A DNA stretch of 39,356 nt from a virus (Duplodnaviria; Heunggongvirae; Uroviricota; Caudoviricetes): IMG/VR virus record IMGVR_UViG_2671180568_000005. One strand, given 5' to 3'. A program made the position numbers and the translations under genes. Every line of letters begins with the position of its first letter. Position 1 is the first letter of the stretch. The notes under the pieces are model-generated. The model saw nothing but the letters and a program-made list of their open reading frames with translations. It did not search any database and was not told the origin of the DNA. Below are positions 585-38,041 of this stretch, piece by piece.

Positions 585-604
585 AAAGCGCCCGCAGGCG
601 CTTT
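585..604. repeat. Candidate attL core: 20-bp direct repeat aaagcgcccgcaggcgcttt shared with 38022-38041
   Basis: Perfect 20-bp identity with the stretch just downstream of serS; it sits about 80 bp from the integrase gene; on the minus strand it forms a hairpin plus T-run, consistent with the displaced half of the serS terminator. Confidence 0.6.
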
Positions 605-687
605 AACATTTCTTGCCCCCCCTGATGATTTACTTATTTTTCAACGAATAAGCCAAAACAGGGGGAACAAATTAACACAAATTATAA

Positions 688-1680
688 CTAATCGATGGAC
701 AGTTTATGGACACTTTCAGCCAGCGGATTAAAGTTGATCGCGTCCTGTAAGAAGTCCGGCGAAAAATGAGCGTACGTCATTGTTTGCTGAATCGTTGCGT
801 GCCCCAGGATTCGTTGCAACGTAACAATATTTCCGCCATTCATCATAAAGTGTGTGGCAAATGTATGACGCATGACATGCGTAGCCTGCCCCTTCGGCAA
901 ATCCGGTTTCACCTCCTGAAGAATCTCCCGGAACTTCAGATAATCAACCTGATACAATAACCCCGTTCGACGGGTTTTAATCAGAGGCACGACCGAATCC
1001 GCCACAGGAACCGAACGGGATTTTCCGTTTTTGGTGTTAAAGAACGTCACCCGGTTGCCAACGATATGCTCTCCACGTAGTTCCGATGCTTCACTCCATC
1101 GGGCACCAGTAGAAAGACACAGAATGGCAACACGACGCGCATCACCCTCCAGTCGCTCAAGAAGCCGTTCAATCTCATCATCAGAAAGAAAGGCCATCTC
1201 TGTGTTCTGAACTTTCAGTTTTCGTATACCGCGTACAGGGTTCGCGTTGTGAAAGACCTCAGCTTCAATCAGCACCGTGAACATGGTAGACAGTACGCAT
1301 AAGTCACGATTAATACTGGACGGCATTAATCCGGCCTGTAATTTCTCTGACCGATATTCAAGCATAAATTTTCGCGTCATCTGACTGGCGCGAGGATCTC
1401 CCATTTCACGAACAACCTTCCCTAGCCTAACCCTGTAGCTATCCCCGTAAGCCTGATTACGCCCATCAAGCATCCACCACGCATCAAGCAGCTCTGATAA
1501 TCGCCGCTGATCAGCTGGCTTAGCCTGCCATGGCTTGTCATGAAAGTTCTGTAACACATACTTCTCAAACTCCTGAGCCTTTGATTTCAGGGCAAAGATT
1601 TTTCGAATCCGCTTTCCTTCCGCCCCCTGCGGTCTGACATCGACCTGATAACGTCCGTCTTTGAGTTGCTTAATCGACAT
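688..1680 (-). CDS. int: P2-type tyrosine integrase
   Basis: Translation MSIKQLKDGRYQVDVRPQGAEGKRIRK...HVMRHTFATHFMMNGGNIVTLQRILGHATIQQTMTYAHF resembles P2 Int; GGAGG lies 8 nt upstream of this ATG. The ORF track's alternative start at 1695 adds 5 codons. Confidence 0.9.
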   Translation of the reverse strand: MSIKQLKDGRYQVDVRPQGAEGKRIRKIFALKSKAQEFEKYVLQNFHDKPWQAKPADQRRLSELLDAWWMLDGRNQAYGDSYRVRLGKVVREMGDPRASQMTRKFMLEYRSEKLQAGLMPSSINRDLCVLSTMFTVLIEAEVFHNANPVRGIRKLKVQNTEMAFLSDDEIERLLERLEGDARRVAILCLSTGARWSEASELRGEHIVGNRVTFFNTKNGKSRSVPVADSVVPLIKTRRTGLLYQVDYLKFREILQEVKPDLPKGQATHVMRHTFATHFMMNGGNIVTLQRILGHATIQQTMTYAHFSPDFLQDAINFNPLAESVHKLSID

Positions 1681-1749
1681 GATTAGCCCCTCCAACGGAT
1701 AAATTAACTAAACACTCCTTGCGATATGTAATTCGCTCAATGTGTAGAG

Positions 1750-2091
1750 TCAGCCAACATTGCGGCCTGATCGGGGTGATTTTTGGGTAATACCGATTGA
1801 AACCTGATCGCCCTCCGACTGAATAGATCCATCAAGAGAGAGAGCCGGAGCAATCTGCCCGGCGACAGGTAGCGTCTTATCTTTTATTAGCCACAGCATG
1901 TATTTTTCAAAGCGATCGACTTGCAGAACCGCCTCAACGATTTTTGCTCTAGCGTTCTTTTGCCCCGATTCGTAATTCCTTATGGTTGCCAAAGACAACC
2001 CAGTAATATCCGCAAACTGCTTTTGTGTTAACCCTTCCGCCTTACGTATCTGACGTAACTTTTTTGCGTAGTCTATTGACAAGATAACCAT
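1750..2091 (-). CDS. Immunity repressor, XRE-type helix-turn-helix (P2 C-like position)
   Basis: HTH segment LTQKQFADITGLSLATIRNYESGQ; divergent from the early operon as in the P2/186 switch; start chosen at the internal Met with an upstream GAGAGG. Confidence 0.75.
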   Translation of the reverse strand: MVILSIDYAKKLRQIRKAEGLTQKQFADITGLSLATIRNYESGQKNARAKIVEAVLQVDRFEKYMLWLIKDKTLPVAGQIAPALSLDGSIQSEGDQVSIGITQKSPRSGRNVG

Positions 2092-2135
2092 TTGAGTATT
2101 AACCTCTCGCACAAAGATAACCTTTTGGTTATCTT
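2076..2135. promoter_or_regulatory. Switch region: TTGACA -35-like hexamer and two direct 9-bp repeats AAGATAACC (2081-2089, 2114-2122) plus an inverted copy (2127-2135)
   Basis: Repeats read directly; the position between the divergent repressor and cox-like genes matches the P2 operator arrangement. Confidence 0.5.
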
Positions 2136-2195
2136 TACAAGCCAAAACAAACCATCACAAGGCGCGACAAGCGCACCAACGCAAGAGGATAACAA

Positions 2196-2717
2196 ATGCG
2201 GGACTTCATTGCCGATAAAGAGTTATCTGACCACCAACCACTTCAGGAAAGTGACGCACTCAGCGGATCCATTGATGCCGCCAACGACGACGAGCACGAA
2301 GAAAACAAGAAAAAGCGTTCCTACAAAAAAGGAGCGACTTTGCGGCTGGATGGTCCGATCGCCGGGCTTTGCTCTCTGGAAAAAGGCGCGGCATATATTG
2401 GGCTAACAAAATCTGCACTGCGCGTAGCCATTCATCGCGGTCAAATGCCGGGACACAAAACACGCACAAACCCGGAAGATGAAAACTCAGACGGAGTATG
2501 GTGGTTTAACGCCAAAGAGTGGGACAAGTTGGCTGATGAGCTACCAGAGCACGAGCCCCCAGAATGGCACAACTGGAAAAGTTACTGGACGTATGACCGC
2601 CAGAAAAGGAAGTTCTCTCCAGCTAATAAAGAAGACTGCCAGACCATTAACGGTAAGCGAGTTTATACAGGCAGAAGCTCAAAACTGGACCAACTCAGAA
2701 ACAACAGAGGCAACTAA
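2196..2717 (+). CDS. Cox/Apl-like excisionase or early regulator (first gene of the early operon), longer than P2 Cox
   Basis: Position; HTH-like segment AAYIGLTKSALRVAIHRGQMP followed by an aromatic WWF motif as in Cox; AGAGGA ribosome-binding site upstream. Confidence 0.5.
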   Translation: MRDFIADKELSDHQPLQESDALSGSIDAANDDEHEENKKKRSYKKGATLRLDGPIAGLCSLEKGAAYIGLTKSALRVAIHRGQMPGHKTRTNPEDENSDGVWWFNAKEWDKLADELPEHEPPEWHNWKSYWTYDRQKRKFSPANKEDCQTINGKRVYTGRSSKLDQLRNNRGN

Positions 2718-2721
2718 TCGT

Positions 2722-3144
2722 ATGAAAACAAACACGTCAGATTTCACAATAACTATTTCAAAAAATGACCAAGCATTAATTGATAACCTGAAATACCTTG
2801 CGGAAAAACATAATAACGGACGAATTGCAATTAATTTACGACACATCACAGGAGTAACAATTGTAACCAGTTACTGGCATCTATATCTAATCGCTAAATC
2901 AGTACTTGAAAACAAAGATTCTGTTGTCAATGGAAGAGATATAGATACTCTTCCTGCACAAATCAAACCGATAGCCTATCAATTGCGTAATCGTTTTAAA
3001 AATGAAGGTGGGATTATATTTGACTTTCCCGCAGCTGTAGCCGTGAGCTTCTCTCGGGGGGATATACTTCACTCATTTCGTTTTGCTCTATCAGGTGACG
3101 AGACATTATGGCAGCTAGAAGATGCCGGGAGCAGCCCGGCATAA
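2722..3144 (+). CDS. Hypothetical protein in AT-rich island
   Basis: ORF of 140 aa starting MKTNTSDFTITISKNDQ; local GC is clearly lower than the flanks; no recognisable motif. Confidence 0.5.
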   Translation: MKTNTSDFTITISKNDQALIDNLKYLAEKHNNGRIAINLRHITGVTIVTSYWHLYLIAKSVLENKDSVVNGRDIDTLPAQIKPIAYQLRNRFKNEGGIIFDFPAAVAVSFSRGDILHSFRFALSGDETLWQLEDAGSSPA

Positions 3145-3150
3145 ATCAAA

Positions 3151-3342
3151 TTAAAAATCAACCAGTTGTGTGACAGGTGGGTATTTACGCTGAATTTTGT
3201 CAGTTACTAACGCCAGTAATATATGAATCTCTGTGTTTAATGCGTCTTTATCACCCGTCGTTTTTACCCTGGGAGGGTTAATGTTATCCAGAGCAGCACT
3301 AAGTTCACTCAACAAATTAACAACTTTTTTATCTTCTGACAT
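3151..3342 (-). CDS. Hypothetical small protein (63 aa), convergent with the 2722-3144 gene
   Basis: ORF in the same AT-rich island, 6 bp from the stop of the convergent partner. Confidence 0.4.
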   Translation of the reverse strand: MSEDKKVVNLLSELSAALDNINPPRVKTTGDKDALNTEIHILLALVTDKIQRKYPPVTQLVDF

Positions 3343-3479
3343 GAAAACCTCTTAACAATTTAATTAAACATAAGCCAGGACCTGAACCGGCCAGTCCAAG
3401 TCCTAGACACACAAAAAAAATACCACAAATCAATACAAGGTGACACGAGTACACCTTACCGAAGGTACAGAGTTTTAAT

Positions 3480-3830: not shown

Positions 3831-3840
3831 CAGGTGCTTT

Positions 3841-4119: not shown

Positions 4120-4130
4120 AGGGCGTTGCG

Positions 4131-4483: not shown

Positions 4484-4576
4484 CGATACAAATAAAACAT
4501 CAAATTAAATAAGAAAACGTGAAAACCATCCGTATTAACGGAGGTATTCGCACACGCAAATAACGGAGATACAAAA

Positions 4577-4987: not shown

Positions 4988-5010
4988 AGTTACTGGACAA
5001 AGGGGGCGCA

Positions 5011-6770: not shown

Positions 6771-9593
6771 ATGACGGCAGAGTACATCAGGGACTGGCAG
6801 CAACCGCGCCACGCAGTGGGGCGTGAAGGAACGGGGATCCCCGCTCCTGAATCCGCGCTTTCCTCCTGGCTGGATGCCTACCGGGCAGAGAACGAGCGCT
6901 GCCAGGAAATGGCTGATGCGGCGTTCTCCGCCACACCGCTGGGCAACCTGATTAATAAAAGCCTGGACGCACAGGAAAAACAGGACAAAACCATCACACT
7001 GGCAGGAGACGCCAGAAAACGGGCACGCGGCGCGGTGGATGAAGCCATGGCCTCGCTGCGCCTGCTGCCGTCCTATCTGCGCGATCCGCTTATTCGCCAC
7101 CTCTCCTTCCTGCGCAAAAAACAGGAAGCCGATCGCCGGAAAGGCAAAAAGAGCTGGCAGGCGGAACGCTATGCACGCGGAACCCTGCGCAAAATATTCG
7201 AACGTCTGGATCGCACTGACAGACGCTGGCTGACACCGGGTTATCGCTCCCTTGTCGGACGCGAACGCCTGGACGATTTGCTTTACCTGCCGCAGCTCAA
7301 CAAACACCAGATACAGACGCTGGCCACCATGACGGCGGCGATGTTCAGCAGCACCTTCGAAAAACTCTGCGATGGCTTTGGCGCGACTGATGGCGAACTG
7401 ACCATGGATGTAACGCTGAAGGCGTATCAGATGCTGGCCCGCATGGCGTTACACCTGCACGCCATGCCTCCACATTATGACGCACTGACAACAGACAAAG
7501 ACCGGAGGAACGAACCGGACACGGAGCTGCTGCCGGGCGCAATCCTCCGCCTGACCTGTGCGGAATGGTGGAAACGCAAACTGTGGCTGTTACGTTGCGA
7601 GTGGAGAGAAGAACAACTCCGCGCCGCCTGTCTGGTTTCCAGAAAAACATCGCCCTATCTGAGCCAGGGCGCGTTAAGCGAGTTTCGCGCACAGCGCGAG
7701 AAAACACGCGATTTCCTGAAAAGTTTCATGCTGGAAAACGAAGACGGGTTCACGATTGATCTCGAGACAGTGTATTACGCGGGAGTAAGTAACCCGGTTC
7801 ACCGTAAGGCAGAAATGATGGCCACCATGAAGGGGCTGGAACTTCTGGCCGAAGCCCGTGGCGACAAAGCGGTGTTTCTGACTGTCACCTGCCCGTCAAA
7901 ATACCACGCCACAACAGAGAACGGTCATCCGAATCCCAAATGGAACGGGGCCACCATGCGCGACTCCAGCGATTACCTGGTTAACACGTTTTTTGCAGCG
8001 GTCCGCAAAAAACTGAACCGCGACGGCCTGCGCTGGTATGGCATCCGCACGGTGGAGCCTCACCATGACGGCACCGTGCACTGGCATATGATGGTCTTTG
8101 CTCATCCGGAAGAAATCGACACCATTGTGTCCCACACCCGCGATATTGCCATTCAGGAAGACCGCCACGAGCTGGGCAATGATATTACTCCGCGCTTTAA
8201 GGTGGAGTATGTCGACGGCTCAAAAGGCACACCAACCAGCTACATCGCCACCTACATCGGAAAGAACCTGGACAGCCGCGCCGTGGATGGCATCGACCCG
8301 AAAACGGGCAAGCCACGCGTTGACCACGAAACCGGAAAATCAATGGCCGAGAGCGTGGAGCGTGCCATCGGCTGGGCGCGCCTTCACCGGGTCCGCCAGT
8401 TCCAGTTCTTTGGTATCCCCTCCCGTCAGGTGTGGCGTGAACTGCGTCGCCTTGCCAGCCAGATGGCACGCAACCCGGAAGGACCGCAACGGCTGAAGGA
8501 TGACGCAATGGACGCGGTTCTTGCTGCCGCTGATGCCGGATGTTTTGCCACCTACATAGAGAAACAGGGCGGCGTACTTGTTCCACGCAAAGACTACCTG
8601 ATTCGCACCGCCTACGACCTCGCAGATGAGCTGAACGATTACGGCGAACAGAGCGTACAGATTTACGGGATCTGGTCGCCGCTCATTGGGGTATCTTCCC
8701 GCGTATGCACGCATCCGGATAACTGGAAGCTGGTAAGACGCAAACCGGAAGCGGAAGACAGCGCCCGCGAAAATGGTTTTGACCTTCAGGGCGGCCCTGC
8801 CGCCCCTTGGACTCGTGGCAATAACTGTCCCCGTGTACAGGAAACGGACAACAACGGGACAGAACAGCCGGAAGAACGGCCAGCACCGTGGCCGCAGCTC
8901 CCTGACGGCGTTGAAGTGAACGAATGGATGCGCTCACTGAAACGGCACGAACGCCGGGCGCTGATGCGTTCGCTTCGTGACAAACAGGCAAAAAACAGCA
9001 GTGATGAAATGCAGAGCTGGACACAGAGCCGCAAACAGCAGCGGCCTTTGCCTGATAACCACGAATTACTCGCTAAAGAATGGCGGGAGTCTGCCGAATC
9101 TCTCGGCCTGCATATCGGTGAACAGCAGATGCAGCACCTGTTACGGGGCGGCAGTCTGTACGTTGACGGCAGCATCATTGCACCGCAGGGATTTGAAATT
9201 GTACGCAAACCGGATACCCGACCGGACAGCCGGATCACGCAGCTCTGGCAGCGCCTGAGCCGTAACCACGGCGTAAGCAGCACGGAGATCCGCCATAACC
9301 CGGTCGCCAGCTATCTGGAACAGCTGGGGGCATCAGACCCCGAAGCCGCCGCACGCCTGGCATCCACACTTCAGCAAGACCAGAACACCATGAAAACACC
9401 CGTTACCGTGCTTTCTGACATGCTGCGCGCCATCCGCGACGCAGAGCACGCACAGAGAATCAGTGAAACCACTGAACGCGCCCGCCGCAAAGCAGACCTG
9501 CTGCGAGGTGGCCTGACCAGTGGAAACAAAAAACAGACAGAAACGGGATTCACAAATCCCGTAAATGAGCAAAAAACGCGCCGCGATATATGA
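6771..9593 (+). CDS. A: Rolling-circle replication initiator (P2 gpA-like HUH endonuclease), 940 aa
   Basis: HUH motif TVHWHMMVF and catalytic tyrosine pair SYIATYIGK; position after the early genes. Confidence 0.85.
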   Translation: MTAEYIRDWQQPRHAVGREGTGIPAPESALSSWLDAYRAENERCQEMADAAFSATPLGNLINKSLDAQEKQDKTITLAGDARKRARGAVDEAMASLRLLPSYLRDPLIRHLSFLRKKQEADRRKGKKSWQAERYARGTLRKIFERLDRTDRRWLTPGYRSLVGRERLDDLLYLPQLNKHQIQTLATMTAAMFSSTFEKLCDGFGATDGELTMDVTLKAYQMLARMALHLHAMPPHYDALTTDKDRRNEPDTELLPGAILRLTCAEWWKRKLWLLRCEWREEQLRAACLVSRKTSPYLSQGALSEFRAQREKTRDFLKSFMLENEDGFTIDLETVYYAGVSNPVHRKAEMMATMKGLELLAEARGDKAVFLTVTCPSKYHATTENGHPNPKWNGATMRDSSDYLVNTFFAAVRKKLNRDGLRWYGIRTVEPHHDGTVHWHMMVFAHPEEIDTIVSHTRDIAIQEDRHELGNDITPRFKVEYVDGSKGTPTSYIATYIGKNLDSRAVDGIDPKTGKPRVDHETGKSMAESVERAIGWARLHRVRQFQFFGIPSRQVWRELRRLASQMARNPEGPQRLKDDAMDAVLAAADAGCFATYIEKQGGVLVPRKDYLIRTAYDLADELNDYGEQSVQIYGIWSPLIGVSSRVCTHPDNWKLVRRKPEAEDSARENGFDLQGGPAAPWTRGNNCPRVQETDNNGTEQPEERPAPWPQLPDGVEVNEWMRSLKRHERRALMRSLRDKQAKNSSDEMQSWTQSRKQQRPLPDNHELLAKEWRESAESLGLHIGEQQMQHLLRGGSLYVDGSIIAPQGFEIVRKPDTRPDSRITQLWQRLSRNHGVSSTEIRHNPVASYLEQLGASDPEAAARLASTLQQDQNTMKTPVTVLSDMLRAIRDAEHAQRISETTERARRKADLLRGGLTSGNKKQTETGFTNPVNEQKTRRDI

Positions 9594-9645
9594 AGCGCGC
9601 ATAAAACAGGCAAAAACGGGATTTCAGAATCCCGTAAACGATTAA
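9533..9645. repeat. Two copies of a ~40-bp unit containing the palindrome aaacgggatt-N5-aatcccgtaaa (9541-9565, 9615-9639): candidate parC-like centromere or operator
   Basis: Read directly; located immediately upstream of the ParM-like gene; the first copy lies within the 3' end of the A coding sequence. Confidence 0.5.
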
Positions 9646-9669
9646 TTAATCAACATAAGGAAAAGCGAC

Positions 9670-10629
9670 ATGAAAATTTGTATCGATGACGGCTCCACCA
9701 ACATCAAGCTGGCATGGACTGAGAACGGCGAACGCCGCAACGCCATCAGCCCGAACAGCTTCAAGTCGGAATGGTCTGCGCCGTTCGGTGGCACGCAGCC
9801 CGCGAACTACATGCTTGATGGCGTGCGCTATGGTTTTGATCCGGTCAGCGATCGCTTTGTCCAGACGACTGACACGCAATACCAGTACAGCGATGTGAAT
9901 GTCATTGCCATTCATCACGCGCTGGTCAAATCAGGCATCACGCCACAGGAGGTGGATGTGGTTGTCACCCTGCCACTGAGCGAGTATTTCGACACAAACG
10001 CACAGCCGGACATAGCCAACATCAACCGCAAAAAAGCGAACGTTATGCGCCCGGTGGAGTACCAGAACGGCGAAGCATTCACTATCCGTAACGTACGGGT
10101 TATGCCTGAATCCATTCCGGCTGGCTTTAAGGCACTGGCTGACATGAGTCCGTTTGAATCCCTGCTGATTGTGGATTTAGGCGGAACCACGCTGGATGTG
10201 GCAAAGGTTCAGGGACAACTGGCAGGTATCAGCCAGGTGTTTTGCGATCCACACGTAGGCGTTTCCCTGATGGCCGATGCCGTACTGTCGGTGATGGCCA
10301 CTAACGGTATGCGTACCAGTCACCACATCGCCAATACCATTATCGAACATCGCCATGATGAAGCCTGGCTGCGCCAGCACATCCACAATGACGCGCATTA
10401 CGCCAGCCTGATGGCGGTTATTCGTGAAAAGGAAGAAACACTGAAACAACGCGTGATCCGCGCGCTGGCGGGTTTTTCGGGTTACGGGCGGGTGATGGTT
10501 GTCGGTGGCGGGGCAGAGATTGTGGCACCCGCTATCCGCGAAGCCTGCGGAGTTAATGCGACTTTCATCGCGGACGGGGTGCCACAGTTTGCTCTGGTTA
10601 ATGGGCTGTACGCAATGGGCAAGGAGTAA
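9670..10629 (+). CDS. parM: ParM/StbA-family actin-like segregation ATPase
   Basis: N-terminus MKICIDDGSTNIKLAW...ISPNSF...YSDVNVIAIHHAL matches the ParM phosphate-1 and adjacent motifs; DLGGTTLDV phosphate-2-like motif. Confidence 0.8.
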   Translation: MKICIDDGSTNIKLAWTENGERRNAISPNSFKSEWSAPFGGTQPANYMLDGVRYGFDPVSDRFVQTTDTQYQYSDVNVIAIHHALVKSGITPQEVDVVVTLPLSEYFDTNAQPDIANINRKKANVMRPVEYQNGEAFTIRNVRVMPESIPAGFKALADMSPFESLLIVDLGGTTLDVAKVQGQLAGISQVFCDPHVGVSLMADAVLSVMATNGMRTSHHIANTIIEHRHDEAWLRQHIHNDAHYASLMAVIREKEETLKQRVIRALAGFSGYGRVMVVGGGAEIVAPAIREACGVNATFIADGVPQFALVNGLYAMGKE

Positions 10630-10633
10630 ACCA

Positions 10634-10945
10634 ATGACGACACCAACCAGACGGATAAGTTTCTATCTGAAGCCCGCCGCCGTCAAGAACGAAGGCGAAG
10701 CATGCGCCTGGCTGGACAGCCTTACACCAGAAGCCCGCAAAAGTGGTCAACGCGTGGCTTTTCTGGCCGGGCTGGCACTACTGAAAATGAATCCGGCAGA
10801 GGCTTACCGACTGGCTGCATGGGCTGATGATGAGGCGTTATCAATGACACAAACCAGGACAGAACGCCCCGCGTCACAGCCAGTATCAGCCGCACAGATA
10901 ACCAGTCAGATGGCCGGAAATATCCGGGCGTTATTTCCCGAATAA
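10634..10945 (+). CDS. parR: ParR/StbB-like centromere-binding adaptor
   Basis: RRISFYLKPAAV...LDSLTPEARKSGQRVAFLAGLALL...IRALFPE parallels R1 ParR (ribbon-helix-helix N-terminus, conserved C-terminal tail); AAGGAG ribosome-binding site; 4 bp after the parM stop. Confidence 0.7.
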   Translation: MTTPTRRISFYLKPAAVKNEGEACAWLDSLTPEARKSGQRVAFLAGLALLKMNPAEAYRLAAWADDEALSMTQTRTERPASQPVSAAQITSQMAGNIRALFPE

Positions 10946-21150: not shown

Positions 21151-21292
21151 CCCACCCACATGGGGAAACCTCGGAATATGGGGCGACCGCCTTCTGGATG
21201 CACTGGAAACCTGTAACGCGGATAAACGGGCCATTGCTGAACTGGATAAGAGAATAGCCGAACCGACACACCAGACGGGAGTAACACAATGA
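21011..21292 (+). CDS. Rz1-like outer-membrane lipoprotein spanin, overlapping the Rz gene out of frame
   Basis: Signal peptide with lipobox LLTGC and a proline-rich mature region; starts inside the Rz reading frame. Confidence 0.65.
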   Translation: MNAPTLCLTLVLLTGCAGTQNEPGPAPSVRLIPQTLTMPVTPPPFPDPPTWGNLGIWGDRLLDALETCNADKRAIAELDKRIAEPTHQTGVTQ

Positions 21293-23169
21293 CCAGTAAG
21301 AACTTTGCACTGATTACAGCCATGACACAGGCTGAACTGACTCAAAAGGTGAATGAACATCTTGCGAAAGGGTGGCATCTTCAGGGGGAGACGCGGGTTG
21401 CCTACGAACCCGGCACCCCGTGGTATCTAATGCAGGCAATGGTGGCCGATGGCACTACAGACATCTCACCTGATTCCCCCCAGCACGGCAGCGTGCCGGA
21501 GTGGTATTACGTGGTGGTACTTGCTGGTCAATCCAATGCCATGTCATATGGTGATGGAATGCCGCTGCCGGATTCTTACGATGCGCCCCACCCACGCATT
21601 AAGCAACTGGCCCGTCGCAACACAGTGACTCCCGGTGGTAAAGCATGCGCATTTAACGACATCATTCCGGCAGACCACTGCCTGCATGATGTTCAGGATA
21701 TGAGCGCACTGAATCATCCGAAGGCAGACCTGAGCAAAGGGCAGTACGGCTGTGTCGGCCAGGGCTTACATATTGCCAAAAAACTGCTCCCGTATATCCC
21801 GAATAACGCGGGGATCCTGCTGGTACCATGCTGCCGTGGTGGTTCGGCATTCACTCAGGGCGCGGAGGGAACATTCAGTACGACCACGGGGGCCAGCCAG
21901 GATTCGGCGCGCTGGGGTGTGGGTAAACCGTTATATCAGGACCTGATTGCGCGCACTAAAGCTGCATTACAGAAGAACCCGAAAAATGTGTTGCTGGCGG
22001 TGTGCTGGATGCAGGGCGAATTTGACATGAGCGCTGCCACCTACGCACAGCAACCGGACCTGTTCACGGCCATGCTGAAGCAGTTCCGTACTGACCTTTC
22101 CGGATTTAACGCGCAGTGCCATGGCGGCAGTGCTGCAGTTGTACCGTGGATTTGTGGCGACACGACGTATTACTGGAAAAACACATACGGCACACAGTAT
22201 GACTCCGTCTACGGCGCGTACAAAAACAGGGAGAGCGACAACGTTTTCTTTGTGCCGTTCATGACCGACGGTAACGGCAACAACACACCCACCAACTTAC
22301 CGGCAGAAGACCCGGATATTGCTGATGCAGGTTATTACGGCGCGCAATCCCGTAGTAATGGTAATTGGGTATCGTCAAATCGTCCGACACATTTCAGTTC
22401 ATGGGCGCGCAGGGGCATTATTTCGGATCGCCTGGCAACCGCTATTCTGAACGCAGTTGGTCGAACCAGCGCCTTCATCAGCGGTACCGCACCGGAGATT
22501 AAACCCTCNNNNNNNNNNNNNNNNNNNNNNNNNNNNNNNNNNNNNNNNNNNNNNNNNNNNNNNNNNNNNNNNNNNNNNNNNNNNNNNNNNNNNNNNNNNN
22601 NNNNNNNNNNNNNNNNNNNNNNNNNNNNNNNNNNNNNNNNNNNNNNNNNNNNNNNNNNNNNNNNNNNNNNNNNNNNNNNNNNNNNNNNNNNNNNNNNNNN
22701 NNNNNNNNNNNNNNNNNNNNNNNNNNNNNNNNNNNNNNNNNNNNNNNNNNNNNNNNNNNNNNNNNNNNNNNNNNNNNNNNNNNNNNNNNNNNNNNNNNNN
22801 NNNNNNNNNNNNNNNNNNNNNNNNNNNNNNNNNNNNNNNNNNNNNNNNNNNNNNNNNNNNNNNNNNNNNNNNNNNNNNNNNNNNNNNNNNNNNNNNNNNN
22901 NNNNNNNNNNNNNNNNNNNNNNNNNNNNNNNNNNNNNNNNNNNNNNNNNNNNNNNNNNNNNNNNNNNNNNNNNNNNNNNNNNNNNNNNNNNNNNNNNNNN
23001 CACGGTTACTCCGAAACTGAATGGAGTGGCTGGCCCGGCATTCCAGGTCATAAAAGACAGTCTGACACTGGGGCTGAATGCGCTGACGTTAACTGATATC
23101 ACTAAAAATGCCGCGTACGGCGTCGATATCGGCAGCCTGGTGCTGGAAATCAATAATCCCGCAGTATAA
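21289..23169 (+). CDS. NanS-p-like sialate O-acetylesterase (DUF1737-like N-domain plus SASA/SGNH domain); interior replaced by a 492-N gap
   Basis: N-terminus ITAMTQAELTQKVNEHLAKGWHLQGE and esterase block VVVLAGQSNAMSYGDG (GQSN motif); residues encoded by 22509-23000 are unknown. Confidence 0.65.
   Translation: MTSKNFALITAMTQAELTQKVNEHLAKGWHLQGETRVAYEPGTPWYLMQAMVADGTTDISPDSPQHGSVPEWYYVVVLAGQSNAMSYGDGMPLPDSYDAPHPRIKQLARRNTVTPGGKACAFNDIIPADHCLHDVQDMSALNHPKADLSKGQYGCVGQGLHIAKKLLPYIPNNAGILLVPCCRGGSAFTQGAEGTFSTTTGASQDSARWGVGKPLYQDLIARTKAALQKNPKNVLLAVCWMQGEFDMSAATYAQQPDLFTAMLKQFRTDLSGFNAQCHGGSAAVVPWICGDTTYYWKNTYGTQYDSVYGAYKNRESDNVFFVPFMTDGNGNNTPTNLPAEDPDIADAGYYGAQSRSNGNWVSSNRPTHFSSWARRGIISDRLATAILNAVGRTSAFISGTAPEIKPXXXXXXXXXXXXXXXXXXXXXXXXXXXXXXXXXXXXXXXXXXXXXXXXXXXXXXXXXXXXXXXXXXXXXXXXXXXXXXXXXXXXXXXXXXXXXXXXXXXXXXXXXXXXXXXXXXXXXXXXXXXXXXXXXXXXXXXXXXXXXXXXXXXXXXXXXXXXXXXXXXXXXTVTPKLNGVAGPAFQVIKDSLTLGLNALTLTDITKNAAYGVDIGSLVLEINNPAV
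22509..23000. other. Gap (492 N) inside the esterase gene
   Basis: Run of n characters. Confidence 0.99.
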
Positions 23170-26714: not shown

Positions 26715-28440
26715 CAGTGAAATACTACGCCATTCTGACTAATCAGGGCGCGGCACGACTGGCTAACGCGACGATGCTCGGCAGTAAGCTGAATCTGACG
26801 CGAATGGCCGTTGGTGATGCAAATGGTGTGTTACCAACACCAGACCCTGCACAAACAAAACTGATTAACCAGAAACGCATTGCACCGCTGAATCTTCTGA
26901 GTGTTGACCCTAACAATCAGAGCCAGATTATTGCGGAGCAAATCATCCCTGAAAGCGAGGGTGGATTCTGGATCCGTGAGATTGGTCTTTATGATGATAA
27001 AGGTGTACTCATTGCGGTGGCAAACTGCCCGGAAACGTACAAACCGCAGTTGCAGGAAGGCAGTGGACGCACCCAGACTATCCGCATGATTCTGGTTGTC
27101 ACGAACACCGAAGCCATCACGCTGAAAATCGACCCGTCTGTGGTTCTGGCAACCCGCAAATATGTGGATGATAAAATATCAGAGCACGAGCAGTCACGAC
27201 GTCACCCGGACGCCTCGCTGACCGCAAAAGGCTTTGTTCAACTTAGCAGTGCCACGGACAGTCAATCAGAAACTGAGGCTGCCACGCCGAAGGCTGTGAA
27301 AATCGCGTATGATCTGGCCCGGGGAAAATACACAGCCCAGGATGCAACAACGACCCGTAAAGGGATCGTACAACTGAGCAGCGCCACCAACAGCACCTCT
27401 GAAACGCTGGCCGCCACACCAAAAGCCGTCAAGGCTGCATACGACCTTGCAGCCGGCAAGGCGCCCGTCAGCCACACTCACCCGTGGAGTCAGATAACGG
27501 GAGTGCCTGCTGCCTCGCTGACGGCAAAAGGCACCGTACAACTGAGCAGTGCCATCAACAGCACGTCTGAAATACTGGCCGCCACACCGAAAGCGGTCAA
27601 GGCTGCATACGATCTGGCAGCCGGCAAGGCGCCCGTCAGCCACACTCACCCGTGGAGTCAGATAACGGGAGTGCCTGCTGCCTCGCTGACGGCAAAAGGC
27701 ACCGTACAACTGAGCAGTGCCATCAACAGCACGTCTGAAATACTGGCCGCCACACCGAAAGCGGTCAAGGCTGCATACGATCTGGCAAACGGAAAACAAC
27801 CGGCAGATGCCACGCTCACTGCTCTGGCAGGACTTGCCACTGCAGCAGATCGGTTGCCTTATTTTACCGGAGCAGACCGCGCAGCGCTGGCAACCCTTAC
27901 AGCTATTGGTCGCGCTATTATCGCTAAGGGCAGTATAAAAGATGTCCTCAATTACCTTGGTTTNNNNNNNNNNTTGGTTTGGGGGAAGGCTCTGCATTGC
28001 CTGTTGGTGTACCGGTTCCATGGCCCACCGCCACACCGCCAGCAGGCTGGTTACAGTGCAACGGAGCTACGTTCACCAAAGAACAATATCCTGTTCTGGC
28101 CAGAGTCTACCCGACCCTCCGTCTTCCCGATTTGCGCGGTGAGTTTATCCGTGGATGGGACGGTGGTCGCAAGGTTGATACCGGGCGTGCGCTACTTTCA
28201 TTTCAGGAAGGGACTATCGTATCCGGTTTTGATGATAATGATAACGGAGATATCAGTTCGCTCGGCTCTACACAATACGGATTTGGTGACGCTTTAACCT
28301 CTAATCAACTGGGGGTCTTAAATGGCAAAAAGTGGATATTTGATGCATCCTCTAAAGGTGCACAAAGATATGACTGGTGGGCTTATGTATCAGCTCGCCC
28401 CCGCAATATCGCATTTAACTATATCGTGAGGGCGGCGTGA
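26711..28440 (+). CDS. H: Tail fibre protein (gpH-like): constant part fused to a variable tip; reading frame apparently broken by the 10-N gap
   Basis: N-terminus MTVKYYAILTNQGAARLANA; repeated fibre motif TAKGxVQLSSA...TPKAVKAAYDLA; after the gap the frame 27979..28440 continues with GEGSALPVGVPVPWPTATPPAGW and ends NYIVRAA. Confidence 0.75.
27451..27786 (+). repeat. Perfect tandem duplication of a 168-bp (56-codon) unit inside the fibre gene
   Basis: 27451-27618 repeats at 27619-27786; two older diverged copies of the motif lie upstream. Confidence 0.85.
27964..27973. other. Scaffold gap (10 N) at the constant/variable fibre junction
   Basis: Run of n characters; ttggttt is present on both sides. 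Confidence 0.99.
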
Positions 28441-28446
28441 TACCGT

Positions 28447-29061
28447 TCAACTGGCAAGTGCCAGTGGTGCTTCCGGCCAGCTGATTTCAGGTGCCGTGCT
28501 GATATCCAGTGCGTTCAGCTCGTCGATATAATCCAGCACGGCGTTCAGTTTTGCCGTTTCTTCTGGTGTCAGACTGCGACCAGCACGCAGTTTGAGGTTG
28601 ATAAGATCGACGGACGCCATCGCCTGTTTCACCCGTTGCTGGCGTTGCTGTCTGGCAACCTCCAGTTCTGCGGTTCGCTGCCGTTCAGTATCGGTTACCC
28701 ACGCCTCACCGTTCCAGGTATCCCATGGCGTGGCTGGCTGTTTTGTGGTGGTGTCCGCCGGGTAATCACCCGGTTGGGTAATCAGAACGGGGTTACCGTT
28801 CTCCGTGCTGTATACCGTCTCGCCGCGGTGATCAGGCACATGCTCCCACCCGTTCAGCGTGGCAGTCCGGCAAACCACGTAACCCGAAATTGCCTCCGGC
28901 GGTGCATCGGCGCACGAATGTGCCGGAGTACCCACCCCAAGGGCGAGATACTCCACAGAGGATGAGGTGTATTCCCGGGTTTCCTCGTCATAGTGATATA
29001 CAGTGATATCGCCCGCTACAGTGGCGATACCGTTTTCATCCAGAACTGCAGTGTTACTCAT
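28447..29061 (-). CDS. Tail fibre assembly chaperone (Tfa/gpG/Mu U family)
   Basis: 204 aa with a C-terminal ...LDYIDELNALDISTAPEISWPEAP tail typical of Tfa proteins; adjacent to the alternative fibre tip. Confidence 0.75.
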   Translation of the reverse strand: MSNTAVLDENGIATVAGDITVYHYDEETREYTSSSVEYLALGVGTPAHSCADAPPEAISGYVVCRTATLNGWEHVPDHRGETVYSTENGNPVLITQPGDYPADTTTKQPATPWDTWNGEAWVTDTERQRTAELEVARQQRQQRVKQAMASVDLINLKLRAGRSLTPEETAKLNAVLDYIDELNALDISTAPEISWPEAPLALAS

Positions 29062-29630
29062 TAAACTGCCCTCACAATGTAATTAAGTGCAATGCTACGG
29101 GGTCTGACAGTGATACCCTTCGCATACCCGCTTCTGATAGAGGTCAGAATAGTAGCCTGCATACCATTGTCTGACATTGCTATGACAGGATCGCTGAATG
29201 TTGTCCCGTCCGGCATTTTAAAGCTGCCCTCACGAAGGTCTGTAATGGAATCTTCATTGTTGAATCCCATGCCGACTATCCCCGAGGTTCCCGTAGTGTC
29301 CTGGTTATAATAATCCAGCATTGCTGTTCTTAACAGCGTTGCCCCTTGTGCGGACAGCAACTTACGTCCTGTATCAACTTTGCGCCCGTCATCCCATCCA
29401 CGGATAAACTCACCGCGTAAATCGGGAAGACGGAGGGTCGGGTAGGCTCTGGCCAGAACAGGATATTGTTCTTTTGTAAAGGCGCGCCCGTCGCACTTTA
29501 ACCAGCCTGCTGGCGGTGTGGCGGTGGGCCACGGAACAGGCACACCAACGGGTAGCGCCGAGCCTTCTCCTAAACCAACGTTTTCGTTTTTATCCCTACC
29601 TATACCAACTCTGTATTTTTCACGAAACAA
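29061..29630 (-). CDS. Alternative tail-fibre C-terminal cassette, promoterless and on the opposite strand
   Basis: Shares GLGEGSALPVGVPVPWPTATPPAGWL and the C-terminal NYIVRA motif with the tip at 27979-28440; begins with TTG and has no independent ribosome-binding site. Confidence 0.7.
   Translation of the reverse strand: MFREKYRVGIGRDKNENVGLGEGSALPVGVPVPWPTATPPAGWLKCDGRAFTKEQYPVLARAYPTLRLPDLRGEFIRGWDDGRKVDTGRKLLSAQGATLLRTAMLDYYNQDTTGTSGIVGMGFNNEDSITDLREGSFKMPDGTTFSDPVIAMSDNGMQATILTSIRSGYAKGITVRPRSIALNYIVRAV
29565..29590. promoter_or_regulatory. Candidate right crossover site for the invertase (ttctcctaaaccaacgttttcgtttt), mirrored across the gap at about 27955-27990
   Basis: AAACC/GGTTT half-site pattern reminiscent of hix/gix/cix sites; position immediately upstream of the invertase gene. 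Confidence 0.35.
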
Positions 29631-29644
29631 AGAGGATGTTTTTT

Positions 29645-30244
29645 ATGCAAATTGGCTATATTCGTGTGTCAACAAACGACCAGAACACGGATTTACAACG
29701 CAATGCACTGAACTGCGCAGGATGTGAACTGATTTTTGAAGATAAAATCAGCGGAACGAAATCAACCAGACCGGGATTGAAAAAACTGCTCAGAACGCTA
29801 TCAGAAGGAGATACGCTGGTTGTCTGGAAGCTGGACAGACTGGGCAGAAGTATGAAACACCTGATCACGCTTATTGAGGAATTGCGGGAAAAAGGTGTTA
29901 ATTTCCGTAGTCTGACGGACAGCATTGACACGTCAACACCCATGGGGCGTTTCTTTTTTCACGTCATGGGGGCTTTAGCCGAAATGGAACGTGAATTAAT
30001 TGTAGAACGTACACTGGCTGGGCTGGCAGCAGCACGCGCACAAGGACGCATTGGCGGACGTCGCCCGAAGTTGACAAAAGAACAACACGAGCAAATAGCG
30101 AGGCTGATTAAAAACGGTCATGACAGGAAACAACTGGCGATCATTTACGACATCGGCATATCGACGATTTATCGTTATCACCCTGTAGGCGATATACAGG
30201 CTGAAGAAACAACCAGGCAGACTCAGGAAAATGAAAACCGCTAA
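29645..30244 (+). CDS. Serine DNA invertase of the Hin/Gin/Pin/Cin family
   Basis: MQIGYIRVSTNDQNTDLQRNAL...VVWKLDRLGRSMKHLI...GRFFFHVMGALAEMERELI with the catalytic Ser in YIRVST and a C-terminal HTH. Confidence 0.9.
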   Translation: MQIGYIRVSTNDQNTDLQRNALNCAGCELIFEDKISGTKSTRPGLKKLLRTLSEGDTLVVWKLDRLGRSMKHLITLIEELREKGVNFRSLTDSIDTSTPMGRFFFHVMGALAEMERELIVERTLAGLAAARAQGRIGGRRPKLTKEQHEQIARLIKNGHDRKQLAIIYDIGISTIYRYHPVGDIQAEETTRQTQENENR

Positions 30245-34104: not shown

Positions 34105-34159
34105 CAGTTGTCTCCTTTTCAGTCAGAGGCGACGCACTGCGCCGCCTGCATATTACTTA

Positions 34160-34672: not shown

Positions 34673-35856
34673 CAGGCACCTCCCAGCACCGCAAATGCGG
34701 GACCAAAGAATTCATCAGTAAACGACTGGTAAAGCTCCATGTCTTCCAGCGGCGGAACGGGCGTATATTTGTAGCGAATACGCACACGCCCCTGACGTAA
34801 ATTCGTGGTGCTGTTATCCACGATGTCATACCAGCACTCCGCGCCAATCAGTTTCCCGGCAGTAACCAGTGAATCCAGTTTTGCCCTGATGGCACTGATA
34901 ACATCCTTCACGTTCGCAGGCGTCAGTGGACTGTCGATGGTTTCAAACTGCGCTTCCGCAATTGAATCAGCCAGCACCTGTGCGGTTCGGGTATACACCT
35001 CAAAGATGTAGGCGTTCGTTTCCGGTGTGCGGTTGCCCCAGAAGCGGAACCCGTTACGACGAATAATGGTCGTGATTTCTTTGTTGTTGAGGCTGTTGGC
35101 ATCACTGTCTTCGGCCTGTAACGACCAGAACACATGCCTCGACATCCCCAGCACATTTTTAACCGGAACGTTGGACAGCGATTTGTGCCAGCCCTGCTCA
35201 TGGTCAATGTACGCACGAAGGCCGCACGCATAAGCAGGCGCGGGGAACGTTTCGTTTTTGCCACTTTTCGGGTTGTAGGCGATGAAGTCAGGCCATAAGA
35301 GCATCACCTCACGTTCGTTGAATTTCTGGCGGTAGGTAATCGCCTCAGCCATCGTGTTACAACCATGACATGCGGCATACACAAACGCGCGCAGTTTACC
35401 CGCAATCACGCACAGGGATTTTGTCACCGCCTCCGTGTCCAGCTCCGGCGCGGCCAGAATACGCGGACGGTATCCGATGCTTTCATCCTGCTCTGCAACA
35501 AGCAGCGCATACATCCCCGTATAGCTGCCGTCAGATTCAGAACCACCGATAACCAGTTGATCCTGCGTCTTTCCGTTTTCTTCTTTGTGTTCAGCCACGC
35601 GAACGACGATCACCTTTGTGCTCACCTGGTCTGCGATGGCCTTAAGCGCACGATAAAGCGTCCCCGTTGTCCCGCATTTTCCCAGCACGTCATTGACGCG
35701 GGTCAGCAGTGTGGGCTTGTTCAGCGGGAACAGCTTCGCGTCCGCATCATCCGCCGTTGCCACGATACCGATAACGCTGGAATCAACATCATTAATCGCT
35801 GTTACCAGGTCGGTACTTTCCGTAACACGGGCACCATGAAAACGAGTTTCACTCAT
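34672..35856 (-). CDS. FI: Tail sheath protein (P2 gpFI-like)
   Basis: 394 aa; AAGGGG ribosome-binding site upstream. Confidence 0.85.
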   Translation of the reverse strand: MSETRFHGARVTESTDLVTAINDVDSSVIGIVATADDADAKLFPLNKPTLLTRVNDVLGKCGTTGTLYRALKAIADQVSTKVIVVRVAEHKEENGKTQDQLVIGGSESDGSYTGMYALLVAEQDESIGYRPRILAAPELDTEAVTKSLCVIAGKLRAFVYAACHGCNTMAEAITYRQKFNEREVMLLWPDFIAYNPKSGKNETFPAPAYACGLRAYIDHEQGWHKSLSNVPVKNVLGMSRHVFWSLQAEDSDANSLNNKEITTIIRRNGFRFWGNRTPETNAYIFEVYTRTAQVLADSIAEAQFETIDSPLTPANVKDVISAIRAKLDSLVTAGKLIGAECWYDIVDNSTTNLRQGRVRIRYKYTPVPPLEDMELYQSFTDEFFGPAFAVLGGA

Positions 35857-36013
35857 AGCTTCAGCCCCTTGTATCCGTTAAATGATTCGGCAACAATCAT
35901 CACCCACCACGCGCGTAATCTCACCCCTGCGCCGTTCTCCCGCCACGGCGACAACAAAAAGCAGTAACCCCCTCCGCACGCACATGCGACCATGCCGCAC
36001 AGGGAGGGAGCAG
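35857..36013. promoter_or_regulatory. Divergent intergenic region between FI (minus) and D (plus); presumed late promoters
   Basis: Position only. Confidence 0.3.
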
Positions 36014-37123
36014 ATGACCGACACCACCATGCAATTGCTCAGTCAGGGCACAGACCCCGTGAAAATGCCGGATTTTGATATTCTCGCGGAGGGTAAAACG
36101 CTGTCAGGCGTGGCAGAGTGCCTGATGAGCCTGTCACTGACCGACAACCGGGGATTTGAGGCGGACCAGCTCACCATCACGCTGGATGATGCGGATGGTC
36201 AGTTGCTGCTACCGCCACGGGGCGCGCGCCTGACGGTTCTCATTGGCTGGAAAGGAGAACCGCTGACAGAAAAAGGCACTTACATTGTTGATGAAATCGC
36301 TCACGAAGGACCGCCGGACAGGCTGACGGTTTCAGCCAGAAGCGCAGATTTTCGGGATGAATTTAACGTTAAACGTGAGGTGTCCTGGCATGATGTGACC
36401 GTTGAGCGCGTGGTATCCGCCATCGCTCATCGGTACGGTCTGAAACCACAAATCAGCGAAATGCTGATGGATATTGAAATCGACCACGCTGACCAGACCG
36501 AAGAAAGCGACATGTCCTTCCTTACGCGCATGGCGGAAATGCTGGGCGCAATCACTACGGTAAAAAGCGGTAATCTGTTATTCATCATGCCAGGCGGTGG
36601 CGTGAACGCACAGGGCCAGCCGTTGCCCTCGTTCGCCATCACGCGCAGCAGTGGCGATCACCATCAGTTCCGCATTGCTGACCGCGAAGCGTATACGGGG
36701 GTACGCGCTTACTGGCTTGATCTTAATTACGGGAAAAAGAAAAAAGTCAGCGTGAAACGCCGCAAACCGCCAAAACCCAAAAAGGAGAAAAGCAGCAGCC
36801 GTGAAGGTGATTATATGGAAGGCGCGGAAGGCAATGTGTTTGTGTTACGCAAGACCTATCAGAACGAACAGGCAGCAAGACGCGCAGCGGCGGCAAAGTG
36901 GCAGCAGCTACAACGCGGAGCCGCATCATTCTCCATCACGCTGGCGCGTGGACGTGCAGAACTCTACCCCGAAATGCATGGTACGGTAACAGGATTTAAA
37001 AGCGAGATTGATAATCAGGACTGGATCATTGCAAAAGCCGAGCACACTATTGATAACAGCGGCTTTACCACGCAGCTTGAGCTTGAGGCAAAAATCCCGG
37101 AATGGATAGCGGAAACAGAGTGA
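36014..37123 (+). CDS. D: Tail protein D (P2 gpD-like)
   Basis: Start at the ATG 6 nt after GGGAGGGA; the ORF track's upstream extension from 35882 is probably not translated. Confidence 0.8.
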   Translation: MTDTTMQLLSQGTDPVKMPDFDILAEGKTLSGVAECLMSLSLTDNRGFEADQLTITLDDADGQLLLPPRGARLTVLIGWKGEPLTEKGTYIVDEIAHEGPPDRLTVSARSADFRDEFNVKREVSWHDVTVERVVSAIAHRYGLKPQISEMLMDIEIDHADQTEESDMSFLTRMAEMLGAITTVKSGNLLFIMPGGGVNAQGQPLPSFAITRSSGDHHQFRIADREAYTGVRAYWLDLNYGKKKKVSVKRRKPPKPKKEKSSSREGDYMEGAEGNVFVLRKTYQNEQAARRAAAAKWQQLQRGAASFSITLARGRAELYPEMHGTVTGFKSEIDNQDWIIAKAEHTIDNSGFTTQLELEAKIPEWIAETE

Positions 37124-37165
37124 GCAACTTAGAATAGCGGCAGCACCACGTTAAGGGAGGTCGCT

Positions 37166-37426
37166 ATGTTCCGTTGTCCGCTTTGTGGCGCATCTGCCCG
37201 TATCCGCACCAGTCGTCCGGAAAATGATTCAAACACCGTGCGGCAAAAGTATTACCAGTGTAACAACCTGGAATGCGGCGTATGCTTCTCAACACTGGAA
37301 GCTTTCCATAAATTCACATCAAAACACGCCTCCGCCGTTCACTCTTCAGAAGGTATCCCGTGGCATGAGCTGCCAGCTTCACACAGGGGAAACAATCAGA
37401 TGAGTTTGCCTTTACCTCAGAACTAA
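37166..37426 (+). CDS. ogr: Late-gene transcriptional activator, Ogr/Delta zinc-finger family
   Basis: MFRCPLCGASARIRTSR...YYQCNNLECG with the Cys-X2-Cys...Cys-X4-Cys arrangement of Ogr. Confidence 0.8.
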   Translation: MFRCPLCGASARIRTSRPENDSNTVRQKYYQCNNLECGVCFSTLEAFHKFTSKHASAVHSSEGIPWHELPASHRGNNQMSLPLPQN

Positions 37427-37617
37427 CAGGCAGAATTGCCGGATTAACAAAAAAGCGATAGATTACGCGCGGGTGCCTTTCGGCTGATGGTCGGAGGGAA
37501 TACCCGAAGGCCAGATGTGGAAAGGCCCCGGAAAACATTTCTGTTTAACCGAGGCCCTAACATATCTACCTTAAGCAAGTGATAGGTTAGCGCCTCTCCA
37601 ACAAAGGAGCAAGCGCT

Positions 37618-37758
37618 ATGTCGCAAAAATCGCTTACGGCCATCACGTTCTGCGTGACGGTAATCCTCATCATCTGGATGCTACACGGTTCGCTGTGTGA
37701 AATACGGATGAGCTTCTGGGGAGCGGAGTTTGCGGCGTTCTTACAGTGTAAGCAGTAA
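37618..37758 (+). CDS. hok: Hok/Gef-family type I toxin (46 aa)
   Basis: MSQKSLTAITFCVTVILIIWMLHGSLCEIRMSFWGAEFAAFLQCKQ: transmembrane segment plus the SLCEIR and E-AAF motifs of Hok/Gef. Confidence 0.75.
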   Translation: MSQKSLTAITFCVTVILIIWMLHGSLCEIRMSFWGAEFAAFLQCKQ

Positions 37759-37852
37759 GGAAACCGCGACGGGGAAGGCAACTTCCCCGTCAATCGGTTG
37801 CCAGGGTAAAGGTCGAAAAGGCACCCTATTTCCAGTTGACGTGAACAACAAG

Positions 37853-37885
37853 CCCGCAGCGTAAAAACTGCGGGTTTTCTTTTTG
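37853..37885 (+). terminator. Rho-independent terminator (cccgcag ... ctgcggg followed by a T-run)
   Basis: Read directly downstream of the hok-like gene. Confidence 0.6.
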
Positions 37886-37916
37886 GTTCCCTCACTCATG
37901 AGGACACCAAAAAACA

Positions 37917-37948
37917 AAGCCCACAGCATAGAAGCTGTGGGCTTTTTG
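37917..37948 (+). terminator. Second terminator hairpin (gcccacagc ... gctgtgggc followed by ttttt)
   Basis: Read directly. Confidence 0.6.
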
Positions 37949-38021
37949 CATTCAAAGATGGACGTTATATGGACACTTAAAAATAAAATCCATTTATTTT
38001 CAAATGATTAAACCTCTACTT

Positions 38022-38041
38022 AAAGCGCCCGCAGGCGCTTT
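38022..38041. repeat. Candidate attR core (identical to 585-604), forming the serS-proximal terminator hairpin
   Basis: Perfect 20-bp direct repeat, 22 bp downstream of the serS stop. Confidence 0.6.

Follow-up and report, generated by a model that had tools for sequence, protein, structure and literature searches.

The stretch of DNA analysed here (the window, 39,356 nucleotides (nt), recorded in IMG/VR as the virus IMGVR_UViG_2671180568_000005) is 100% identical to the chromosome of Escherichia coli PCN033 (NZ_CP006632.1). It contains a P2-like prophage next to serS, the host gene for seryl-tRNA synthetase, and the same 20-base-pair (bp) sequence, AAAGCGCCCGCAGGCGCTTT, stands at both ends of the prophage. 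With one copy of this core counted, the prophage is 37,437 bp long. The features that frame it are the following.

585-604, no strand: attL core (B-O-P'), identical to the single copy in the empty K-12 site and in attP
605-38021, no strand: body of the P2-like (Peduoviridae) prophage, with the Pfam families Int, helix-turn-helix (HTH) repressor, Cox, GPA, GPD and Ogr, in agreement with the RefSeq annotation of PCN033
688-1680, minus strand: int, P2-type tyrosine integrase of 330 amino acids (aa), WP_000023738.1, with Pfam Int_N and Phage_integrase
38022-38041, no strand: attR core (P-O-B'), where the homology of prophage-free genomes begins exactly
38064-39356, minus strand: serS (seryl-tRNA synthetase), host gene; its terminator forms the attB core

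The two copies of the 20-mer, both read on the plus strand, agree without a mismatch, as an earlier note on this DNA had claimed. The identity is exactly 20 bp long, and the flanks diverge at the first base on either side: the left copy lies between cacaaa and aacatt, and the right copy between ctactt and ttagat. No such pair is expected from 100 shuffles of the window, and a uniform model predicts about 7e-4 exact 20-mer repeat pairs. A k-mer census of the window found no other exact direct repeat of at least 18 nt, apart from tandem repeats in the tail-fibre gene and an artefactual duplication of 1-87 at 395-481. The 20-mer is a perfect 8-bp inverted repeat about a 4-nt centre (an 8+4+8 palindrome, AAAGCGCC-CGCA-GGCGCTTT), and its minus strand, which is the sense strand of serS, folds as a hairpin. 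The terminator-type hairpin that the earlier note had described on this strand in each copy is thus confirmed by the fold, and its account of the surroundings holds as well. The left copy lies beside the integrase gene, 83 nt from int, and is followed on the minus strand by TTTTTT; the right copy lies just downstream of serS, 22 nt from the stop codon (38064-38066), and is followed by TTTAAGTAGAGG.

What does the site look like in the absence of the prophage? The serS-dmsA intergenic region of K-12 contains exactly one copy of the 20-mer (L001, 1501-1520), located 22 nt past the serS stop codon and upstream of dmsA, and reads gagacaaaa, the 20-mer, ttagattcag and, further on, the TTA of the serS stop. 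In the O103:H2 lysogen, which lacks an insertion sequence (IS) at this place, attL consists of the K-12 left flank, the 20-mer and phage DNA (beginning aacgtttc), while attR of the window consists of phage DNA (ending ctactt), the 20-mer and the K-12 right flank. The comparison with an unoccupied serS locus, which the earlier note had proposed as a check, therefore gives one 20-mer, with flanks equal to those of the IS-free attL and of the attR in the window. Prophage-free genomes likewise match the window starting exactly at 38022. With a 321-nt probe spanning the site, the empty arrangement was found intact in 5075 of 5426 complete E. coli genomes; an attL-type junction is present in about 337 genomes and an attR-type junction in 279. 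The orientation is invariant among all of the occupied serS-dmsA sites inspected in E. coli and E. albertii, with int facing dmsA and ogr/hok facing serS.

An integrase identical to WP_000023738.1 is listed in about 5,800 assembly-index blocks. In a collection with one genome per species, E. albertii alone carries the same Int at the same site, and identity to the other nearest integrases does not exceed 59%. Downstream of serS in Yersinia alsatica (L012, 6217-6236) and Serratia nevei (L017, 6288-6307), the exact 20-mer is present too, between diverged flanks. Such conservation of a host element is unusually deep for a terminator, and it suits a sequence used as attB. We considered whether the 59%-identical Yersinia and Serratia integrases use the same site and rejected this, since in the Yersinia locus inspected the junction adjoins a gene for a PflA-like radical-SAM activase (from a reading of translated open reading frames (ORFs)); the 20-mer found 2.2 kb away in those integrase loci is their own serS terminator.

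In PCN033, the A/T-run of the terminator is interrupted, 3 nt away from the core of attL, by an IS200C element, which within the window replaces the dmsA-side host flank. Its right part occupies 98-581 (minus strand), the element runs on to the left of the window (L002, about 2397-3102), and its tnpA is co-directional with int and dmsA. The end hairpin of the IS (551-578) is placed next to attL. The element is absent from the O103:H2, UTI89 and AVS0226 lysogens. Positions 1-87 of the window exactly duplicate 395-481, followed by 10 N, and the finished PCN033 chromosome has other IS200C sequence there (L002, 2534-2619); this duplicate is an assembly, scaffold or masking artefact without biological content.

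The remaining arrangement to be accounted for is attP, the junction of the excised circle. A synthetic attP, made by joining 37741-38041 to 605-905, matches the IncC plasmid pC-Ec2-KPC (NZ_MK439959.1) over 602 of 602 nt at 99.3%. The plasmid junction reads aaacctctactt-AAAGCGCCCGCAGGCGCTTT-aacgtttcttgcc, with hok and ogr on one side, int on the other and a single 20-mer between them. The circle junction that the earlier note had suggested looking for (P arm, one 20-mer, P' arm, int) is accordingly contiguous in this record in silico, and it maps to the 20-mer. Thus, the same 20 bp are found in attL, attR, the attB of K-12 and the plasmid-borne attP, and attP is defined as the 196 bp formed by 37957-38041 joined to 605-715, with an attB of 20 bp. 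The plasmid is a conjugative IncC KPC plasmid that holds a whole copy of the phage at about 38958-79975, between and around three copies of IS26 (L122, L123). The order is IS26, the early genes through baseplate gene J, IS26, an inverted segment with DUF4754, int, attP, hok and the tail fibre, and IS26. This copy may have arisen when IS26 formed a cointegrate with a circular phage genome and then mediated an inversion. Three int-containing INPHARED "phage" records were rejected as free phage, because they are prophage cut-outs that still carry dmsA.

Next to the core lie an integrase and a set of sites of the kind that P2-type phages use, listed here together with the adjoining regulatory genes.

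694-715, plus strand: predicted P' arm-type Int sites, GATGGACAGTT (694-704) and TATGGACACTT (705-715), overlapping the last int codons
37957-37978, plus strand: predicted P arm-type Int sites, GATGGACGTTA (37957-37967) and TATGGACACTT (37968-37978), in the same orientation as the P' pair
37998-38010, plus strand: candidate site TTTCAAATGATTA for integration host factor (IHF), located between the core and the P-arm repeats, with an A/T-rich tract ahead of it and one mismatch to WATCAANNNNTTR
650-660, plus strand: candidate Cox box AAGCCAAAACA in the P' arm; the same 11-mer occurs at 2139-2149, in the C/cox divergent promoter (switch) region
1750-2091, minus strand: C-type immunity repressor (HTH), transcribed with int; Pfam and annotation
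2196-2717, plus strand: Cox-family protein (173 aa), which presumably acts as excisionase and regulates the switch; Pfam gives Phage_Cox 31.2 bits (cut-off 27.5), and the annotation agrees

The integrase matches Pfam Int_N with 97.2 bits and Phage_integrase with 68 bits, and it is 56% identical over its full length to a P2-like phage Int, including the conserved ARW, HxxRHT and TYAH motifs. The comparison protein comes from a record labelled Peduovirus P2; since the attP of that record could not be matched to the P2 core, we treat it as a P2-like Int. The arm repeats contain (g/t)ATGGAC(a/g) in an 11-bp phase, two per arm. The pattern ATGGACN5ATGGAC occurs in the window at these two places only, with 0.15 expected, and a count of two was reached in 1 of 100 shuffles. 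The related motifs that the earlier note had put at about 705-717 and 37965-37977 are present as exact copies of TATGGACACTT at 705-715 and 37968-37978, although its coordinates were off by 0-3 nt. According to the text of a study of P2-type phages (Nilsson, Johansson and Haggard-Ljungquist 2011, Bacteriophage 1:207; PMC3448106), two or more direct arm repeats with the consensus tgTGGaCa flank the core on either side in phages of this type, and attP and attB have the same core. The reading of the motifs as arm-type sites is supported by this consensus as given there, by the 11-bp-phased pairs on both arms, and by collinearity with a P2-like attP. The inferred attP and the P2-like attP share one layout: the ogr terminator, the P-arm repeats, an A/T-rich tract with TTTCAnnTGATTA, the core, a spacer, and the P'-arm repeats in the int 3' end. 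The core and the spacer are divergent between the two, and both the position and the sequence (TTTCAnnTGATTA) of the IHF-like site are conserved. The locus thus has the integrase domains, the paired arm repeats and the attP/attB-identical core of a P2-type tyrosine integrase att system, and Int, IHF and Cox would bind at the sites named. The 11-mer AAGCCAAAACA is, by analogy with P2, a candidate binding box for the 173-aa Cox-family protein.

The element itself has been catalogued before. As given in the text of the same study, PhiECO5 of UTI89 extends from 911187 to 948481 (PMC3448106), and both of these positions fall in the loops of the two UTI89 20-mer hairpins. PhiECO5 and the PCN033 prophage share an identical Int (WP_000023738.1), the serS-dmsA site, the 20-mers at both ends, the orientation and a size of about 37.3 kb. 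They differ in the C protein (WP_000247830 in UTI89, WP_001368591 in PCN033) and in some of the cargo. By its integrase, site and orientation, the prophage belongs to the PhiECO5 group. Because PhiECO5 is this element, the site, and its deduction by comparing attL and attR, are already in the literature; in the text of that paper, figure 5 aside, the words "terminator" and "hairpin" do not occur (PMC3448106). A literature search on prophage integration at serS/dmsA found nothing beyond it.

From these data we conclude, with high confidence, that a P2-like temperate phage of the PhiECO5 group entered the serS terminator hairpin of PCN033 by conservative site-specific integration, and that the two 20-mers are the resulting attL and attR cores. 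The observations that carry this conclusion are the repeated 20-mer, the unoccupied site in other genomes, the attP junction, the protein families, the arm repeats, the fixed orientation and the identity with PhiECO5.

How does the insertion affect the terminator? In the empty site, the RNA in the serS sense reads AAAAAGCGCC-UGCG-GGCGCUUUUU-UU, begins 22 nt past the serS stop codon, and continues from the hairpin into seven U residues. The hairpin dominates both the minimum-free-energy and the centroid structures, and the GC-rich stem-loop followed by a U-run is the pattern of an intrinsic terminator. Judged from its fold and by inspection, the 20-mer hairpin is the predicted intrinsic (Rho-independent) terminator of serS. 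Since the whole stem-loop lies inside the identity segment, the hairpin is present at both junctions. After integration, however, the serS-side hairpin is followed by UUUAAGUAGAGG, and serS keeps only UUU, because the core does not include four of the seven U residues, which pass to attL. There, 83 nt past the int stop codon, the hairpin is followed by the host U-run, which is seven U in the IS-free lysogens and six in PCN033, where IS200C has cut the run. The hairpin is thus duplicated rather than split, and it is the U-run that is partitioned. The earlier note had proposed that integration into the serS terminator reconstitutes the hairpin; this stands insofar as the hairpin is doubled whole, while the terminator on the serS side is not fully rebuilt. 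Termination of serS may be weakened in lysogens, and a second hairpin, inside attR, could stop serS read-through on the minus strand.

37916-37945, no strand: strong bidirectional phage terminator with a 12-bp stem, -30.1 kcal/mol, z score -4.8, 76 nt inside attR

A separate observation concerns the RNA predicted over attL of the IS-free lysogens (L003, 2495-2553), where the phage sequence GGGGGGGCAAGAAA pairs with the host sequence UUUUUUUGUCUCCC in an extended helix around the hairpin (-32 kcal/mol, z score -4.7). The IS insertion in PCN033 abolishes this helix. We set it aside as a meaningful structure, as it is probably a chance pairing of a purine run with a pyrimidine run.

We propose the following course of events, in which the exact cleavage positions, the termination efficiencies and the activity of the PCN033 copy are presumed. 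The phage attP carries the same 20 bp as the host terminator. Int presumably recognises both 8-bp halves of the stem as inverted core-type sites, and its N-terminal domain is presumed to bind the two pairs of ATGGAC arm repeats. IHF would bend the P arm, and the strands would be exchanged across the asymmetric centre of the hairpin. In the resulting lysogen, the host U-run at attL would terminate the C-int transcript and insulate dmsA. On the other side, serS would keep the hairpin with UUU, backed by the phage terminator 76 nt downstream. Excision would be directed by the Cox-family protein. Int-dependent integration and excision at the core draw indirect support from the natural attP on the plasmid, from hundreds of lysogens alike in site and orientation, and from the hybrid secondary-site junction described next.

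A second site offers a view of the crossover position. In CP122609.1 (L099, 4077-4100), the host neighbour of an identical Int is not dmsA but a hairpin that follows the tRNA-Lys gene lysV, within the RtT repeat region next to xapR. The empty lysV/RtT host sequence (L121, 703-727) is AAAGCGCC-CTAAA-GGCGCTTTTTT, with the same stems as the 20-mer and another loop. The junction runs from phage GTTAAAGCGCC through T to host AAAGGCGCTTTTTT, giving the hybrid core AAAGCGCC-T-AAA-GGCGC. On alignment, the switch from phage-specific to host-specific sequence lies within CCT, at int-sense core positions 7-9 (plus strand 12-14). The junction itself was found in none of the 5426 complete genomes, and the hybrid form is absent from the empty lysV/RtT sites among the matches listed from these genomes (best 99.6%, with a one-base gap). 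This junction is probably a secondary-site integration or an Int-mediated rearrangement. Single as it is, it puts the exchange at the stem-loop boundary and suggests that Int recognises the stems and tolerates differences in the loop. If the integration was at a secondary site, the reciprocal partner junction would read the lysV flank, AAAGCGCCC-T-GCG-GGCGCTTT and the P arm. Searches for the partner junction of CP122609.1 were negative: the ogr and hok look-ups gave other prophage modules, and two IMG/VR pattern scans came back empty. As a side observation, the same ogr-hok right end occurs with other attachment modules (L102, 3795-3885; L111-L120), and some of these prophages lie next to pgsA or flk. 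One of them abuts the ihfA terminator hairpin, AAAAGGCCGC-AGAG-CGGCCTTTTT, 13 nt from the ihfA stop codon, with TGGAC-type arm repeats just inside.

Several points weigh against our conclusion that the 20-mers are att cores of a phage that integrates and excises through the serS terminator. The evidence for these reactions in PCN033 is a comparison of sequences. A free-phage genome with this attP was sought without success in the INPHARED phage records, IMG/VR, the JGI metagenomes and the complete E. coli genomes. The only attP record, from a plasmid collection, is phage DNA on a plasmid, and its attP could alternatively derive from capture of a tandem lysogen. A simple terminator scanner did not flag the attB hairpin, likely because the extension of the stem consumes the T-run, so that the terminator call is based on the fold and on inspection. 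The count of the IHF consensus over the window is at chance level, so that the match at 37998-38010 is not significant by itself, and the Cox box is a weak match to its consensus. Finally, the placement of the exchange at the stem-loop boundary comes from one junction of one assembly, the other junction of which was not recovered.

Some of these points would also suit a reading in which the boundaries are right but the PCN033 copy is defective or locked, so that its 20-mers are scars that no longer work as att sites. Prophages of the P2 type are classically non-inducible, the phage and virome collections hold no genome derived from virions that has this attP, gpD is truncated to 266 aa, from 369, in some relatives, and IS200C lies 3 nt from attL in PCN033. 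However, the window has full-length ORFs for int, C, cox, A, the portal, terminase, capsid and tail genes, D and ogr. The two cores and the four arm repeats are undamaged and have the same sequences as in other lysogens and in attP, and the IS lies outside both the 20-mer and the attP-derived DNA. Moreover, the breadth of the identical Int across the assembly index and the capture of an attP-bearing copy on a plasmid speak against a dead element. We consider a scarred, inactive copy unlikely.

A second reading regards the 20-mers as unrelated, look-alike terminators of int and serS, with the true prophage ends elsewhere. GC-rich hairpins flanked by A and T runs are indeed common, and the chromosome has another hairpin with these stems at lysV/RtT. 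In contrast, the homology breakpoints with empty genomes match the 20-mer to the base on both sides, attP joins the two arms through exactly one copy, and the chance of such a repeat is as low as given above. The empty-site and attP comparisons refute this reading, and we leave it next to no probability. A target-site duplication from a transposase-like insertion, with no core shared by attP and attB, is formally compatible with direct-repeat flanks that are single in the empty site, but it is refuted by the attP sequence, in which the unintegrated arrangement already has the 20-mer, and it disagrees with a tyrosine integrase that has predicted arm sites and a presumed Cox-type directionality factor and with insertion that is site- and orientation-specific across hundreds of genomes; its probability is negligible.

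Having retained site-specific integration into the serS terminator, we may ask whether the division of the terminator is put to use. In the prophage, the C-int transcript would end at a complete terminator, while on circular DNA the UUUAAG after the hairpin would let transcription continue to the next terminator, so that the 3' end of the int transcript would be set by the integration state. In addition, the Int lineage might read terminator stems generically, an idea to which the same-stem secondary insertion at lysV/RtT and the sister att module beside the ihfA terminator point. We hold this pair of ideas to be speculative and quite improbable.

How does this attachment system compare with known ones? 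With P2 it shares a heterobivalent tyrosine integrase, two direct arm repeats per side, a core identical in attP and attB, the location of attP between ogr and the int 3' end, a presumed Cox directionality factor and an intergenic target that is not a tRNA gene. It differs from P2 in the core sequence and in the host site, and its core, a perfect 8+4+8 palindrome, doubles as a host terminator. The Cox protein of 173 aa is also unlike that of P2, which has about 91 aa. The integrators at tRNA and tmRNA 3' ends (186, HP1, Fels-2 and the P4 type) resemble it in that a phage copy of a conserved, dyad-symmetric host element regenerates the target, and in that attB is stable. In the present case, however, the target is the terminator of a protein gene, and the reconstitution is incomplete, as the serS-side copy loses four of its seven U residues. 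The resemblance to lambda sib is one of layout only: an RNA element 3' of int differs between the integrated and the non-integrated state, because attP lies between int and the element. Here, int is followed by the hairpin and U6-7 in the prophage, but by the hairpin and UUUAAG in attP.

The window holds full-length ORFs for int, C, cox, the GPA replication gene A, the portal, the terminase, the capsid, the tail genes, D and ogr. Right after gene A (9527-10945) lies a plasmid partition pair of the ParM (StbA) and StbB type, preceded by two 42-nt direct repeats that are 81% alike (9527-9568 and 9600-9641) and form a candidate parC-like centromere. The pair suggests that the prophage is possibly also able to persist as a plasmid. 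Amid the lysis and tail genes, 21289-23169 encodes a 626-aa protein with DUF1737 and a sialate O-acetylesterase (SASA) domain, which we take to resemble the NanS-like esterases of Stx prophages. The tail-fibre gene contains 168-nt tandem repeats (27212-27862). Past it, the opposite strand encodes a tail-collar fragment and a protein for tail-fibre assembly, beside a Hin/Gin-type serine invertase (29516-30244), and 27212-30244 is probably an invertible host-range segment. Between ogr and attR, a 46-aa ORF of the Hok/Gef toxin family (37618-37758) is surrounded by several terminator hairpins.

What does the analysis mean for this family of phages? The attachment site is an ordinary one of the P2 type that had been catalogued before, and the present view of site-specific recombination is unchanged by the result. 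The additions are small: the partition of the U-run between the two junctions, a natural attP on a KPC plasmid, and a hybrid secondary-site junction. In practical terms, the exact prophage boundaries can be used to annotate PCN033 and about 300 other complete E. coli genomes. By-products are a 196-bp attP and 20-bp attB pair for a P2-type integrase, and an instance in which IS26 appears to have captured a whole temperate phage onto a carbapenemase plasmid. If the generic reading of terminator stems were true, intrinsic terminators would form a predictable class of attB. For the biology of the host and its phages, the site presents a deeply conserved terminator hairpin as a phage landing pad, following the same logic as the tRNA-gene targets.

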